In this document: positions 39,831 to 46,250 of the stretch, piece by piece
Layout of the letters: each line of letters starts with the position of its first letter
Numbering within the stretch: the first letter of the stretch is position 1
Notes under the pieces: generated by a model
What the model saw: the letters and a program-made list of their open reading frames with translations, nothing else
What the model was told of the DNA's origin: nothing
The model's database searches: none
Made by a program: the position numbers and the translations under genes
Origin: a bacterium
Lineage (GTDB): Bacteria; Patescibacteriota; Saccharimonadia; Saccharimonadales; SZUA-47
Length of the DNA: 64,000 nt
Assembly (NCBI GenBank): GCA_030428125.1
Contig: JAUIBF010000001.1
Location: 234,383-298,382 of the forward strand
Direction: 5' to 3'

Positions 39831-41009
39831 ATGTTTCTGATGAAGACAGTAGCAGTAATATTTGGAAGTCGTTCTGCCGAGCACGACATATCAATAGTCA
39901 CAGCACTTTCGGCAATAATCAAGCCCCTAGAGGCGACCAAAAAGTACAAAGTAGAATCAGTTTACATCTCGAAAGACGGTTCGTGGTTTTGGGACGATAA
40001 ACTAAAGGACATCAAACTCTATCAGTCTAGTGCGATAGACGAATTTATGCGAAAAGCACCAAAGGTGCAATTGCAGTTTGACGACGGCCTGACGCTGGTT
40101 AAGTCTAGTCAGTTCGCAGGTCGCAAAGCTTACAAGAAAATCGATATAGTATTTCCGGCAACACACGGTACTCACGGGGAAGACGGCGAGTTAATGGGGT
40201 TGCTTGAGATGGCTAATGTACCTTATGTGGGGTGCGATGTCCCGTCGAGCGCGATAGCTATGGACAAAGTGTTGTCCAGACAGATAGCAGATGTCAACGA
40301 AATTCCTGTTCCTAAATACGAGTACCTTCAGGCTAGTACGTTCCATCAAAAGGGCGCAGAAGTAGTAAAAGATCTAGAAAAAAGTCTAAAATATCCACTG
40401 TTTGTCAAGCCAGCACGACTAGGTTCGAGTATCGGGATATCTCACGTAAAGAATTCCAGAGAGTTGGTAAACGCTATAGAAGTTGCGCTACATTATGACA
40501 GCAAGGCAATTATCGAAGAAGCTGTCCAAAATTTGGTCGAGGTTACAGTGCCGATAATCGGTAATGATGAGCTAACTTACGCTTCAGCAGAACAACCTTT
40601 GTCCAAAGAAGACGGGGTATTTGATTTTGATACCAAGTACATGAATCAAGGTAAAGGTGGAAAAAAAATGGGCAGTAAATCAGGGGCTCAAGGCTATAGT
40701 AAAATACCAGCTGATATATCTGATGCCCTAACCAAGGAGTCGCTGCGTGTCGCAGGGGCAGTTTATCGCTCTGTTGGCTGTAAAGGAATCGCCAGAATCG
40801 ACCTGCTTATAGATTCAAAGACCAAAAAAGTTTTCTTTAACGAAATAAATCCACTGCCTGGTAGCCTCTATAACCATAACTGGCGAGCTAGCGGAATTTC
40901 CAATGTAGATTTAGTAAACAGACTCGTTGATCTAGCGGAAGACAGCTGGAAAGAAAAACAAAAACTGACAACTACATTCAGTACAAACTTCCTAAAACAA
41001 CAGGGCTAG
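39831..41009 (+). CDS. ddl: D-alanine--D-alanine ligase
   Basis: VAVIFGSRSAEHDISI N-terminus, HGTHGEDGELMGLLE, ATP-grasp body, EINPLPGS. The ATG at 39840 is an alternative start. Confidence 0.9.
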   Translation: MFLMKTVAVIFGSRSAEHDISIVTALSAIIKPLEATKKYKVESVYISKDGSWFWDDKLKDIKLYQSSAIDEFMRKAPKVQLQFDDGLTLVKSSQFAGRKAYKKIDIVFPATHGTHGEDGELMGLLEMANVPYVGCDVPSSAIAMDKVLSRQIADVNEIPVPKYEYLQASTFHQKGAEVVKDLEKSLKYPLFVKPARLGSSIGISHVKNSRELVNAIEVALHYDSKAIIEEAVQNLVEVTVPIIGNDELTYASAEQPLSKEDGVFDFDTKYMNQGKGGKKMGSKSGAQGYSKIPADISDALTKESLRVAGAVYRSVGCKGIARIDLLIDSKTKKVFFNEINPLPGSLYNHNWRASGISNVDLVNRLVDLAEDSWKEKQKLTTTFSTNFLKQQG

Positions 41010-41926: not shown

Positions 41927-41938
41927 TAGAATTTATGC

Positions 41939-42535
41939 ATGCTAGTTAATGCTGAAACGGGTTTTGTTCACGGGTTTGATATTTATAAAGAAGGATCCTC
42001 AGTTCCCGTAGATATTTTTGTTGGTCATGTCATTGTTGCAGATTGCAGTGTTATCTTGCCAGTCCACTCAAGGGATATGCTAATAGGATTGTCCACTCCA
42101 CTAGGAAGACCGATGCTGGCATCCCATCTTTCTGATAGGATTGAGACGCTAAAAAAACCAGTCAATGTAAACAAAGTTTACGCGGATCTTCAAGAGAGAT
42201 TTGAGGGGACGCCATTAGATGGTCATCTTGTAAGCTTAAGACCAGAAACAGGTGGCCGATCAACCTGGTACGGGATGGTAGATGAAGTTTCGGATGAAGC
42301 ATTGTTAGCATTCGCAAATGAGGGTGAAAGGATTGTCCGTGATTCGAAGACAAAAAAGGGGAAGAGCCTGGACAGACGCCTAGCTCCATTTGTATCATTG
42401 CGTGAATCAATAGATAACCCCGAGCTTGCTGACGAAATAGAAGCTAGTCATCATCTGGGTATTGCATTTGTTACCGCAGGCATTCTAACTTTAGGAACCG
42501 TAGCTACTATTGCGCTTATGAAGAGGGCTAAGTAG
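41939..42535 (+). CDS. hypothetical protein (orphan) with C-terminal TM anchor
   Basis: Long ORF with a C-terminal helix IAFVTAGILTLGTVATIALM. No motif recognised. Confidence 0.6.
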   Translation: MLVNAETGFVHGFDIYKEGSSVPVDIFVGHVIVADCSVILPVHSRDMLIGLSTPLGRPMLASHLSDRIETLKKPVNVNKVYADLQERFEGTPLDGHLVSLRPETGGRSTWYGMVDEVSDEALLAFANEGERIVRDSKTKKGKSLDRRLAPFVSLRESIDNPELADEIEASHHLGIAFVTAGILTLGTVATIALMKRAK

Positions 42536-42580
42536 CAAGTAGCTTGTGTTTAAAAAGAGAAAATATGTTTTTATATACTA

Positions 42581-43390
42581 ATGAGTAATTTTATTGCAGA
42601 GGTTAATCTGTGGAACGGAAGAGGCGCCGAAGGTAGACTGCGTGTGACTACTGGCTTTGAAGTCATGGCTGGCGACACAGTACTTAGCGATGTGAATGTG
42701 ATAGGTGGTTTGGCGATGGCTACGCTGATTAATCATCGAGACACACTTATTCCTAAAAGTGGTTTATTACCGTTAGTAGACACAATTGGGTTAGGGCACA
42801 ATCCACTTGATGATCTGGATCCTAAGTTAAATAGACAGAGTAAATTGACCAGAGGTGTTAATTCCTACAGAAGGGCACTACGTAACCCGTTTGCGAAGAA
42901 TGTCTTGCTGTTAGGGTCTGAAGTAGCTTCTGGGCAATGCTGGTATTTCGCAACTGACTTGAGAGACAAGGAGGCAGTTGTTGAATCAGTCACAAGACAG
43001 TCCGTAGAGGAGAGTGGTATCCCTGATGCTGACGCTGTAGTAAGGAGCGTTACGGAAATGTTCGACAAGAAAGGTTCTGGTCACCAAAGCACACCTAAGC
43101 CAAGAGTAGCTTGTTCAGACCGGCCCGAGGAACGGCTTAGGGGTTTTAGGGTGTTAAGACCGGCAACTGCAGCAGACAACAACGCTTTTTTAGACTTTAT
43201 CAAAGGAAGCGAGCCAGGTACTGAAATATCTGCATCTGCTATCGAGGCTTGGAAAGTAGCTAGGGGTATTAGCAGTATGGAGACAGATAAAATTCTCTTC
43301 GTTGCTAGTGGGTTAGATCTGGTTAGGTACAATACAAGGCCTCCAGAAAAACCAGGAAGCTCCTCAGAAGTTATATTTATACGGCAATAA
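42581..43390 (+). CDS. hypothetical protein (orphan, 269 aa)
   Basis: Long ORF. No motif recognised. Confidence 0.6.
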   Translation: MSNFIAEVNLWNGRGAEGRLRVTTGFEVMAGDTVLSDVNVIGGLAMATLINHRDTLIPKSGLLPLVDTIGLGHNPLDDLDPKLNRQSKLTRGVNSYRRALRNPFAKNVLLLGSEVASGQCWYFATDLRDKEAVVESVTRQSVEESGIPDADAVVRSVTEMFDKKGSGHQSTPKPRVACSDRPEERLRGFRVLRPATAADNNAFLDFIKGSEPGTEISASAIEAWKVARGISSMETDKILFVASGLDLVRYNTRPPEKPGSSSEVIFIRQ

Positions 43391-43453
43391 AAAAATGGCA
43401 AATCTATACAACAAAACACGCAAATTATAAATCCCAGGGACACATCGGAATGG

Positions 43454-43740
43454 ATGCCTTTTGGGGTCTGTAGAGCATATCCAACAGAAACCTTTTTTCC
43501 TTCAGATGGTGTCGGTGTCGATAATGCAATAAAAATATGTCGGGGGGTGGTGGTGGTGGAGTTATAGATGCTTGTTTGGAGTATGCTTTATCCGAAAGAA
43601 TTGAACATGGAGTATGGGGTGGAGAATCAGAAAGAGGAAGAAGACGTATTTTACGTAATCGTCGAGCTACTGCAAACCAAGCGATGGTTAGTACTGAGGT
43701 GTCAGTTAGTAAAGTACCACCGGATACAGCTAATTTTTAG
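43454..43740 (+). pseudogene. WhiB-like (Wbl) gene with a reading-frame break in a G6(TGG)4 tract
   Basis: Frame 2 reads (W)MPFGVCRAYPTETFFPSDGVGVDNAIKIC. Frame 1, from 43537, reads ...VIDACLEYALSERIEHGVWGGESERGRRRILRNRR. Together these give the Wbl pattern C-x22-C...C plus GVWGG and a basic tail. The switch lies at 43542-43559. Confidence 0.65.
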
Positions 43741-43775
43741 TTTTTCAGGTAAGAAGTTATACTAGTATCTGATTT

Positions 43776-46250
43776 ATGAAGAGATTTGAACCAAAAGTAA
43801 TTGAGCCGAAATGGCAAAAAATATGGGCTGAAAATGCAACGTATGAAACATCGGAAGATTCAGACAAGCCCAAAATTTATGCTACGCCGATGCTTCCATA
43901 TCCGAGTGGGACCGGTTTGCATACGGGCCATGTTCGTAATTATTCGATAACTGATGCCGTTGCTCGTTTTTATAGACAGAATGGTCACAATACCCTAACT
44001 ACAATGGCTTGGGACTCATTTGGATTACCGGCTGAAAACTACGCGATTAAAACTGGTACTCCACCAGCAGAATCAACAGCAAAGAACATTGCATATTTTA
44101 AAAAACAGCTTTTGACGCTTGGTATGAGCTACGACTGGTCTAGAGAGTTCGATACGTCAGATCCAAGTTATTACAAGTGGACACAATGGGTGTTTGCTTT
44201 GATGTACAAGCAAGGTCTTGCTTACAAGGCTGAAAAACAGCAGTGGTGGTGCGAAAAATGTAACACCGTGCTTGCTGATGAGCAGGTAATAGCCGGGAAG
44301 TGTTGGCGACACGACGGAGAAGATGACCCTCTGGTCAACAAGCGACCATTATCACAATGGTTTTTCAAAATTACAGATTACGTGGATGATATCCTGGAAT
44401 CAACTGACGAGCTAAACTGGCCAGAAAAAATCAAAACTATGCAGAAAAACTGGATTGGTCGCTCTGAAGGTACAGTAGTGAACTTCAAGTTATCAGGGCT
44501 TGGTGCTGACAAGCATCATCTGGACGTGTTCACCACTGCTATCGAGACCATATACGGTACGACGTTCATGGTTGTAGCGCCAGAACACCCTATCGTTGGC
44601 GAATTTGGTCAACTTGCAGAAAACGCCCAAGAAGTTCAAGATTACGTGGAAAAATCTTTGCGAAAAAGTGAACTTGATCGCGAAACAGACAAAGTAAAAA
44701 CTGGAATTCAGATCGATGGCCTAAAGGCTGTGAACCCATTGAACGGAGAAGAAATTCCGGTTTGGATTGCAGACTACGTACTAATGGGCTACGGAAGTGG
44801 TGCAATTATGGCAGTCCCAGGTGAGGACGAGCGTGACTTTGAATTCGCCAAAAAGTATGATTTGCCAATTATTTATACGACCGACAGAAACGAATTTGTT
44901 AATTACGGAAAAGACATTAAACCCAACAGAGCAGGTTACAAGATGGCAAATTCTGGTGAGTTTGATGGGTTAGATTTAGAAGCTGCCAGAGATGCAATTG
45001 TTAATAAACTTATCGATGAAAATTTAGGTGAGCAAAAAGTTCACTACAAAATTCGCGACTGGTTAGTCAGCAGGCAGCGATATTGGGGCGCTCCAGTGCC
45101 GATTATTTATTGTCCCGAGCACGGCGAAGTTTTGGTTCCCGAAGACAAATTACCGGTAGAGCTTCCAAAGGTAGATAACTATGTGCCAGATGGTAAAAAT
45201 TCGTCAGTTCTTGCAGGGGTAGAAGACTGGGTAAATACAACTTGTCCAGAATGTGATAAGCCTGCAAAACGCGAAACAGACACCATGGATGGCTATGTTT
45301 GCAGTACCTGGTATTTGCATCGCTACACAGACGCGCAAAATGCAAGCCAGGCATTTAACCCAGAAAAATCAAATTACTGGTTCCCGATTGATTTTTACTT
45401 TGGTGCAGATCACGCGGTTGCGCACTTGCTATACATTAGATTTTTCCAGAGAGTATTGGTCGATGCAGGTTTAGCAGATGATAAAGAACCTGTGAAGAGG
45501 CTGGTTTACAACGGTTACATCAATGCAGAAGATGGAACGAAAATGAGCAAGAGCAAAGGCAATACAGTTGATCCGATGGATATTATCGAGTCAGGCTATG
45601 GAGCTGATGCGTTGCGTGTGTTTGAGTTGTTTATTGCGCCATATGATCAGGACACAAGCTGGAACAGTAACGGGGTACCGGGTGCTTATAGATTCTTGAA
45701 TCGAGTTTGGGTTTTGCTTCAGGAGTATCTAGAAGATAAAAATTCTGAACCTGCCACACCAGAAGAAATTTTGCGTAGTTGCCATAAAATGATTGCTAAA
45801 GTTACTGATGACATTAAGAATCTAGGTTTTAACACCGCAGTATCTTCGATGATGACAGCAGTAAATGAGCTGTATCTGCTTAAAGCACAGCATGGATATG
45901 GGGACAGAGAAGAATGGAAGTTTGCACTAGAAAGCTTTGCGCAATTGCTGGGTCCATTTGCTCCACACATAGCTGAAGAAATGTGGCATGAACTGGGCCA
46001 TGAGGACTCGGTGCATATTGATAATTGGCCGAAACATGATGAAAAGTATTTAGCCGAAGATACTCTTACAATTGCCGTGCAGGTAAACGGAAAGGTTAGA
46101 GCAGAAATTAACATCCCGGCTGATGCAGGCAAGGACTTTGTCGAATCTGAAGCGATGAAACAAGAAAATGTTGCAGCTCATATGGAAGGCAAGCAAGTGG
46201 TTAAATTCATCTACGTTCCTGGCAAAATCGCTAATATAGTTGTTAAATAG
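43776..46250 (+). CDS. leuS: leucine--tRNA ligase
   Basis: HIGH-type motif (LHTGHVRNY), KMSKS, CP1 editing domain. 824 aa. Confidence 0.97.
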   Translation: MKRFEPKVIEPKWQKIWAENATYETSEDSDKPKIYATPMLPYPSGTGLHTGHVRNYSITDAVARFYRQNGHNTLTTMAWDSFGLPAENYAIKTGTPPAESTAKNIAYFKKQLLTLGMSYDWSREFDTSDPSYYKWTQWVFALMYKQGLAYKAEKQQWWCEKCNTVLADEQVIAGKCWRHDGEDDPLVNKRPLSQWFFKITDYVDDILESTDELNWPEKIKTMQKNWIGRSEGTVVNFKLSGLGADKHHLDVFTTAIETIYGTTFMVVAPEHPIVGEFGQLAENAQEVQDYVEKSLRKSELDRETDKVKTGIQIDGLKAVNPLNGEEIPVWIADYVLMGYGSGAIMAVPGEDERDFEFAKKYDLPIIYTTDRNEFVNYGKDIKPNRAGYKMANSGEFDGLDLEAARDAIVNKLIDENLGEQKVHYKIRDWLVSRQRYWGAPVPIIYCPEHGEVLVPEDKLPVELPKVDNYVPDGKNSSVLAGVEDWVNTTCPECDKPAKRETDTMDGYVCSTWYLHRYTDAQNASQAFNPEKSNYWFPIDFYFGADHAVAHLLYIRFFQRVLVDAGLADDKEPVKRLVYNGYINAEDGTKMSKSKGNTVDPMDIIESGYGADALRVFELFIAPYDQDTSWNSNGVPGAYRFLNRVWVLLQEYLEDKNSEPATPEEILRSCHKMIAKVTDDIKNLGFNTAVSSMMTAVNELYLLKAQHGYGDREEWKFALESFAQLLGPFAPHIAEEMWHELGHEDSVHIDNWPKHDEKYLAEDTLTIAVQVNGKVRAEINIPADAGKDFVESEAMKQENVAAHMEGKQVVKFIYVPGKIANIVVK

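Follow-up and report, generated by a model that had tools for sequence, protein, structure and literature searches.

A Wbl gene of actinobacterial affinity interrupted by a G-rich repeat in its Fe-S loop in a Saccharibacteria-like genome

A split Wbl gene between the aminotransferase and leuS

The 64-kb stretch of contig JAUIBF010000001.1 analysed here (the window) carries, upstream of the leucyl-tRNA synthetase gene (leuS, product LeuRS), two short open reading frames (ORFs) at 43454-43567 and 43537-43740 that are the two halves of one gene of the WhiB-like (Wbl) transcription-factor family. Frame 2, read from the ATG at 43454, encodes MPFGVCRAYPTETFFPSDGVGVDNAIKIC and then runs into an out-of-family tail, RGVVVVEL (codons CGG GGG GTG GTG GTG GTG GAG TTA), before a TAG at 43565-43567, giving a product of 37 amino acids (aa). 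Frame 1, read from the ATG at 43537, begins MSGGGGGGVIDACLEYALSERIEHGVWGGESERGRRRILRNRR and continues to a stop at 43738-43740, giving the 67-aa product MSGGGGGGVIDACLEYALSERIEHGVWGGESERGRRRILRNRRATANQAMVSTEVSVSKVPPDTANF. The original prediction placed the two halves one nucleotide (nt) out of frame inside a G6(TGG)4 simple repeat at 43542-43559 and held that one added G would restore a 95-aa ORF; both statements were reproduced by reading and translating the sequence, and the junction peptide of the repaired product is ...KICRGGGGGGVIDAC....

The assignment to the Wbl family, also made from the letters alone in that prediction, is upheld by a profile search. The repaired protein matches the Pfam family Whib (PF02467) at 44.1 bits against a gathering score of 23.6 bits (E 3e-11, profile positions 5-64 of 65), its C-terminal half scores 32.3 bits by itself, and the PHROG WhiB family is matched at 53.4 bits. 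Among the 5.8 billion proteins searched, 750 Wbl matches were obtained, the best full-length ones being 65-73% identical over the core, and the nearest solved structure is a Streptomyces WhiB (8dy7_H, E 2.4e-8). WhiB of Streptomyces venezuelae (8dy7/8dy9 chain H) and WhiB1, WhiB3 and WhiB4 of Mycobacterium tuberculosis (5oay, 6ono, 7f7n, 8cyf) are recognisable by sequence as fellow members (E 2.4e-8 to 7e-3), although the window protein lacks their third cysteine and has three more residues in the cluster loop. It also differs from the WhiB/WhiB2-type group in belonging to another orthogroup (mean identity 41%).

The four cysteines of Wbl proteins are the invariant ligands of a [4Fe-4S] cluster (PMC6282962). 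In the window gene the first two are separated by 22 residues, and the G[V/I]WGG turn that follows the last cysteine in Wbls is present as GVWGG. The aromatic patch that binds region 4 of sigma-A comprises a Trp before helix 1 (AP1), a Phe-Phe pair (AP2-3) and the Trp of the turn (AP4) (PMC13013590); AP2-3 (F14, F15) and AP4 (W55) are present in the window protein, for which sigma binding is a prediction only. The counterpart of AP1 is encoded at 43451-43453, directly before the ATG at 43454 and in frame with it, yet outside the ORF: the DTSEW stretch that this Trp ends resembles the conserved D-S-x-T-A-W of the homologues, and no in-frame ATG, GTG or TTG start lies between the TAA at 43388-43390 and 43454. 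The basic C-terminal helix SERGRRRILRNRR is present as well, and the columns of R63, R64, R65 and R70 are invariant in the homologue alignment. An AlphaFold2 model of the repaired protein, built from a 57-sequence alignment, was of low confidence (mean predicted local distance difference test score 59.5, predicted template modelling score 0.35). No sigma-70 gene, wanted for the Wbl-binding His-Pro pair of its region 4, was found within the window, and a scan of the window for Rfam families and transfer RNAs (tRNAs) returned four tRNAs only, none near the Wbl locus.

The window gene is thus a Wbl by descent that departs from the family in two defining features, the four cysteines and the intact ORF. 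Only Cys1, Cys2 and Cys4 of the pattern C-x(n)-C-x2-C-x5-C are encoded, and in place of an uninterrupted ORF of about 81-139 aa there are ORFs of 37 and 67 aa, 1 nt out of frame with one another. The coordinates of these features are collected in Table 1.

Table 1. Features of the Wbl gene and its surrounding segment (coordinates of the window)
Feature	Coordinates	Strand	Content
N-terminal half of Wbl gene	43454..43540	+	Frame 2; Met1 to Cys29; Cys1 (codon 43469-43471), FF aromatic pair, Cys2 (codon 43538-43540)
G-rich simple repeat C-GGGGGG-(TGG)4-A	43541..43560	+	G6 at 43542-43547, (TGG)4 at 43548-43559
C-terminal half of Wbl gene	43561..43740	+	Frame 1; VIDA-Cys4-LEYAL (Cys4 codon 43573-43575), GVWGG turn (codons 43609-43623), basic helix SERGRRRILRNRR, tail, TAG stop
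In-frame stretch 5' of first start codon	43433..43453	+	Encodes PRDTSEW
Lineage-specific segment between hyp198 and leuS	42536..43775	+	269-aa orphan ORF (42581-43390) and Wbl gene

The repeat in the Fe-S loop

The break coincides with a rebuilt cluster loop. Homologues read KIC-x-G-C-P-V-x-x-x-CLEYAL (Cys2-x2-Cys3-x5-Cys4), whereas the repaired window protein reads KIC-RGGGGGG-VIDA-CLEYAL, with a Cys2-Cys4 spacing of 11 residues rather than 8; aligned to 8dy7_H, it has three additional residues and a Gly opposite the third cysteine of C-LA-C-EVRSE-C. Among the 119 closest homologues the loop is spaced C-x2-C-x5-C in 111 and C-x3-C-x5-C in 7, and a survey of 995 Wbls found three-Cys forms in 3, all of them doubtful (PMC13013590). 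The alignment with these 119 sequences bears out the earlier statement that the third cysteine would still be missing from the repaired protein. Indeed, Cys3 is absent in every frame, because 43541-43572, the interval between Cys2 and Cys4, holds no Cys codon in any of them.

The window has 20 nt (43541-43560) where the homologues have the 12 nt that code for x-G-Cys3-Pro. The 8 extra nt can be written, for example, as +9 -1, that is, three TGG units minus one base. The present state therefore takes several events, at the least the loss of a Cys codon, the expansion of a triplet and an indel of 1 nt, and one miscalled homopolymer cannot account for the missing cysteine. The repeat is also locally unusual: in the whole 64-kb window there are two trinucleotide repeats with 4 or more units, three G6 runs and no longer G or C run. 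Four explanations had been listed in the original prediction, namely a homopolymer sequencing error, a decaying pseudogene, slipped-strand phase variation and -1 frameshifting. Decay is the best supported of these; repeat counts and RNA folds leave frameshifting and phase variation unsupported, and a homopolymer error is insufficient by itself, since 8 extra nt are not a single-base event, although a one-base error could still underlie the frameshift.

Such a consensus error in the G-run is the main rival to decay. The true sequence would then be G7, or otherwise in frame, and the gene an intact 95-aa three-Cys Wbl with a Gly6 loop. G-rich repeats are error-prone in some sequencing chemistries, and the addition of one G does give a full-length ORF. 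Everything outside the loop is conserved: 39 of the 41 columns that are at least 95% conserved in the 119 homologues are kept, on either side of the break (in the other two, Thr stands for the Pro of YPP and Gly for Cys3), the N-terminal half aligns residue for residue with the homologues, and the 60-codon C-terminal frame is still open, for which we estimate a chance of roughly 2-3% at this base composition. Against an error stands the Logan re-assembly of run ERR3428546 (locus L001, 6,204 base pairs (bp)), in which a second assembler yields a sequence identical to the window base for base, G6(TGG)4 included; the 20-kb exact-k-mer Logan contig would also imply accurate reads. Of the 125 homopolymers of 6 or more nt in the window, which is 94% coding with uninterrupted ORFs of up to 938 aa, 103 fall within long ORFs that are intact, so that nothing points to systematic indels in homopolymers. 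Among about 15 billion proteins the Wbl has no in-frame or length variant; the 67-aa ORF, on record from a 558,049-bp NCBI contig and from the Logan re-assembly as protein P0001, with its start at ATG 43537 and a Whib Pfam match, forms a one-member cluster there and has no full-length near-identical match. Even if the error were real, Cys3 would still be missing and the loop three residues longer, so that the product would fail the defining Wbl feature. We consider this reading unlikely, though far from negligible.

Slipped-strand phase variation, in which the G6/(TGG)4 tract would switch the Wbl on and off in the population and the assembly would have captured an off state, shares with the known contingency loci a break that falls exactly within a composite of homopolymer and trinucleotide repeat, the remainder of the gene being undamaged. 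Small symbiont genomes, moreover, often lack mismatch repair. The window gene nevertheless differs from contingency loci in several respects. Contingency tracts are typically of about 8 or more and G6 is shorter; TGG units are frame-neutral; the window is not repeat-rich, as the counts given above indicate; and public protein collections hold no length variants. The repeat has also removed an essential ligand, so that an 'on' state would be without Cys3 and switching back would not restore a canonical protein. We regard phase variation as quite improbable.

Programmed -1 ribosomal frameshifting would place a P-site tRNA-Gly slip on G-GGG (43543-43546) and produce the 95-aa protein. A -1 slip from GGG at 43544-46 to GGG at 43543-45 re-pairs perfectly and yields exactly the repaired protein, and a zero-frame stop follows 6 codons downstream. 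The zero frame has, however, no canonical X-XXY-YYZ heptamer, because the A-site codon is GTG, and the RNA downstream offers no evident stimulator: the fold of 43548-43640 has an energy of -11.5 kcal/mol (z +0.60) and that of 43500-43600 a z of +1.11, neither better than shuffled sequences. A repeat or Gly-run insertion at the loop occurs in 0 of the 119 closest homologues, and the product would again be without Cys3. Recoding at this site is, in our judgement, scarcely credible.

A further reading takes the 67-aa ORF as a functional stand-alone mini-Wbl, a cluster-free DNA- or sigma-binding peptide. It is a publicly called protein whose Whib match reaches the 32.3 bits reported above, and both the GVWGG turn and the basic helix lie within it. 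It has, however, one of the four cysteines and is without helix 1 and the FF pair needed for sigma binding (PMC13013590). A promoter and terminator scan of 43200-43900 gave no + strand match, and no Shine-Dalgarno-like motif was seen by eye before 43537. The N-terminal half is, besides, equally conserved, which a stand-alone C-terminal gene would not require. A mini-Wbl is very improbable, and the public 67-aa 'WhiB' protein is a gene fragment.

Actinobacterial affinity and occurrence in related genomes

Reviews describe Wbl proteins as restricted to Actinobacteria and actinophages (PMC6282962, PMC13013590), and among the papers searched we found none tying WhiB to Saccharibacteria or Patescibacteria genomes. 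The original prediction had read the window as derived from a candidate phyla radiation (CPR) genome, and this agrees with its LeuRS and its gene order. Among 185,579 species representatives, the best LeuRS matches were metagenome-assembled genomes (MAGs) of Saccharibacteria/Saccharimonadales at 49-52% identity, one match, at 51%, being labelled as a Candidatus Parcubacteria MAG. The neighbours of the Wbl gene are housekeeping genes, encoding an L,D-transpeptidase, a Mur ligase, Ddl, a class-IV aminotransferase (ATIV), LeuRS, NusB, a NUDIX protein, RNase III and S16, and the order Mur ligase-Ddl-ATIV-...-leuS-nusB-NUDIX-rnc-S16 is common to the window and to the loci L003 and L006, both on Saccharibacteria MAG contigs, and L096. 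It recurs in closer relatives that were recovered through the neighbouring genes. Of these, L089-L092 are 67-78% identical to the window in Ddl and 61-65% in ATIV; L096-L099, the closest relative found, are 62% identical in LeuRS, 70% in ATIV, 77% in NusB and 59% in the hypothetical protein hyp198, with a GC content of 42% as in the window. Taken together, these comparisons support a CPR/Saccharibacteria-like assignment of the window genome.

The Wbl gene, by comparison, finds its nearest relatives in another setting. In all five of the nearest homologues examined (P0002, P0004, P0008, P0077 and P0088) the order is ppk, an 86-87-aa ORF, the Wbl gene and a second Whib-domain gene, tatA separating this pair in three or more of the five and an Rv0959-like gene coming next in four; their contigs have a GC content of 64-70%. 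Named members of this orthogroup belong to the Ilumatobacteraceae (Acidimicrobiia) or to Actinomycetota. In a neighbour-joining tree of 57 sequences and 61 columns, which included the neighbouring WhiB2-type paralogues, two Wbls from the PDB and the L003 Wbl, the window protein grouped with the actinobacterial orthogroup in 99 of 100 bootstraps and was nested inside it in 98. Its mean identity to orthogroup members is 71%, that of the members among themselves 84% and that of the window protein to other Wbl types 41%. The likeness to the ppk/tatA orthogroup comprises 65-73% core identity and the shared pattern FFPSDGVGV...KIC...CLEYAL..RIEHGVWGG.SER.RRRI. The window copy differs in its setting, a Saccharibacteria-like genome of 42% GC where none of those neighbours accompany it, in lacking the N-terminal extension, in having Thr for the invariant Pro of YPP and Gly6 for G-Cys3-Pro, and in being frameshifted.

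These comparisons support horizontal acquisition of the window Wbl, with Actinobacteria as the probable source. The proposal of gene flow from an actinobacterial host thereby stands as far as the actinobacterial origin is concerned (98-99 of 100 bootstraps); that the donor was the organism's own host is an inference. A phage or prophage was considered as the source and set aside: tblastn gave no match at E <= 1e-5 in 50,697 phage records, a pattern scan of IMG/VR returned no relative, and the neighbouring ORFs had no PHROG matches.

The gap between ATIV and leuS (41927-43775 in the window) varies in content across the clade. It is empty in L089 and L006, where leuS directly follows the aminotransferase; it holds an unrelated 152-aa ORF in L090 and L092, hyp198 only in L096-L099, where leuS follows the hyp198 homologue after 100 bp, and a Wbl in L003; in the window it holds hyp198, a 269-aa ORF (hyp269) and the Wbl. 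Comparison of the same locus in related genomes thus finds no Wbl in L096-L099, L089-L092 or L006, and no further copy was found elsewhere in the window or in 80 LeuRS loci, L003 excepted. The segment between hyp198 and leuS is therefore lineage-specific and occupies a variable slot.

One relative does carry a Wbl in this slot. That of L003, a Saccharibacteria MAG (CAYXCB010000007.1, 5515-5991), is intact, at 158 aa and 54.6 bits against Pfam, with four cysteines (C-x25-C-x2-C-x5-C), GVLGG in place of GVWGG and a C-terminal extension of ~65 aa. Its presence between ATIV and leuS would favour the view that the window Wbl is a vertically inherited, lineage-wide Saccharibacteria gene, as would the codons of the window copy, which are AT-rich like those of the host and unlike those of Actinobacteria. 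The two proteins are, however, 38% identical and lie in different parts of the tree, the window copy being nested within the actinobacterial orthogroup as described; the L003 Wbl, for its part, is an orphan that has a long branch to itself, its nearest relatives being 35-37% identical. Because the gene is absent at the locus in all the closest relatives, including L096-L099 with their similar LeuRS and NusB, it is not a lineage-wide vertical family, and the suggestion that it might prove to be one was not borne out. Vertical inheritance is highly implausible, and the L003 Wbl most likely represents an independent acquisition.

Codon composition, probable decay of the gene and its neighbours

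The G+C content at third codon positions (GC3) of the Wbl gene is 0.18 with the repeat excluded, in comparison with 0.81-0.85 in its closest homologues. From this difference it follows that synonymous sites have completely re-equilibrated. The retention of 39 of 41 conserved columns together with AT-rich codons indicates, in turn, evolution under purifying selection in an AT-rich background, which could be either this genome or an AT-rich intermediate. On these grounds the transfer was not a recent one from a high-GC donor, and the lesion is probably recent relative to the selected, AT-rich history of the gene.

We therefore favour, at a probability of about 0.6, the reading that the gene is a horizontally acquired Wbl of actinobacterial type, formerly functional, which was recently inactivated when a G-rich microsatellite in its Fe-S loop grew through slipped-strand mispairing. 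A Wbl [4Fe-4S] transcription-factor gene of actinobacterial descent would have entered the variable slot between ATIV/hyp198 and leuS and would have been kept by purifying selection while its codons turned very AT-rich. Slippage in the Cys2-x2-Cys3-x5-Cys4 loop may then have disabled it, the growing repeat exchanging G-Cys3-Pro for a run of glycines, adding three codons and leaving the gene one base out of frame. The products that remain would be a 37-aa N-terminal fragment with two cysteines and, should it be translated at all, a 67-aa C-terminal fragment with one; neither could be expected to carry the cluster on which both the fold of a Wbl and its sigma-factor binding surface depend. Function has probably been lost.

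Several observations weigh against this interpretation. The NCBI and Logan assemblies probably derive from the same reads, so that their agreement is at the level of assembly and not of reads. Outside the loop and the P-to-T change the gene has no stops and no further indels, and the same picture would be left by a consensus error of one base or by an on/off switch. Cys3 is kept in 118 of the 119 closest homologues, and the sole exception, P0005, means that a three-Cys form is not unheard of. No close relative carries the Wbl in which its decay could be traced by comparison. Finally, the 60 genes of the window have a mean GC3 of 0.36 (standard deviation 0.047), and the Wbl value lies below every one of 645 88-codon windows drawn from them; a GC3 lower than that of every host gene is not explained by simple amelioration. 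An AT-richer intermediate donor and a lack of codon selection are both possibilities for it.

A bolder proposal would have Wbls repeatedly captured and used by Saccharibacteria living on actinobacterial hosts, the repeat of the window copy then serving as a slippage switch or opening the way to a Wbl that has three cysteines or no cluster and senses redox state differently. It draws on the intact four-Cys L003 Wbl in the same slot and on the selection under which the window copy became AT-rich, and we give it a slim chance. Wbls in one Saccharibacteria-like genome and one Saccharibacteria MAG are a modest range extension of a known family and not a new kind of system. They are concrete evidence, at sequence level, that genes have passed from Actinobacteria into these epibionts and, plausibly, a trace of transfer from host to epibiont; the Acidimicrobiia-type orthogroup gives a hint of the actinobacterial class with which this uncultured lineage has been in contact. 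The history outlined above also suggests that genomes outside Actinobacteria can keep sigma-binding regulators of the Wbl type for some time. That the window copy is broken is in itself ordinary, a microsatellite whose growth would have destroyed a metal ligand, and it serves as a warning on the public 67-aa 'WhiB'.

The remaining ORFs of the slot and its surroundings show features of their own. The 269-aa ORF has no Pfam, NCBIfam or PHROG match. HMMER found two relatives only, at 37% and 24% identity, among 1.84 billion representatives, the better of them on a 990-bp, 39% GC contig without gene context, and a metagenome scan returned none; its GC3 of 0.38 is host-like, unlike that of the neighbouring Wbl. 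The 198-aa hyp198 (41939-42535) has a C-terminal hydrophobic segment and no family match; its one conserved counterpart, 59% identical and in the equivalent position, is that of the closest relative, which makes it a clade-specific gene. An exact 10-nt direct repeat, TTATGAAGAG, occurs at the end of hyp198 (42516-42525) and at the start of leuS (43774-43783), bracketing the segment that the closest relative lacks; we did not accept it as a target-site duplication, since a repeat this long is to be expected by chance in a region of 1.5 kb, which contains seven such families.

Two further differences concern the flanking housekeeping genes. The D-Ala-D-Ala ligase is of a 392-aa type in the window (39831-41009), whereas the closest relative has a 306-aa type in the syntenic place (L096:5155-6075); the two are 27% identical although the genes that flank them are 60-77% identical, which looks like replacement of one gene type by another in place. 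The LeuRS of L092 (5774-8680) has 968 aa, an insertion of ~145 aa setting it apart from the 824-aa enzyme found in the window and in L096.

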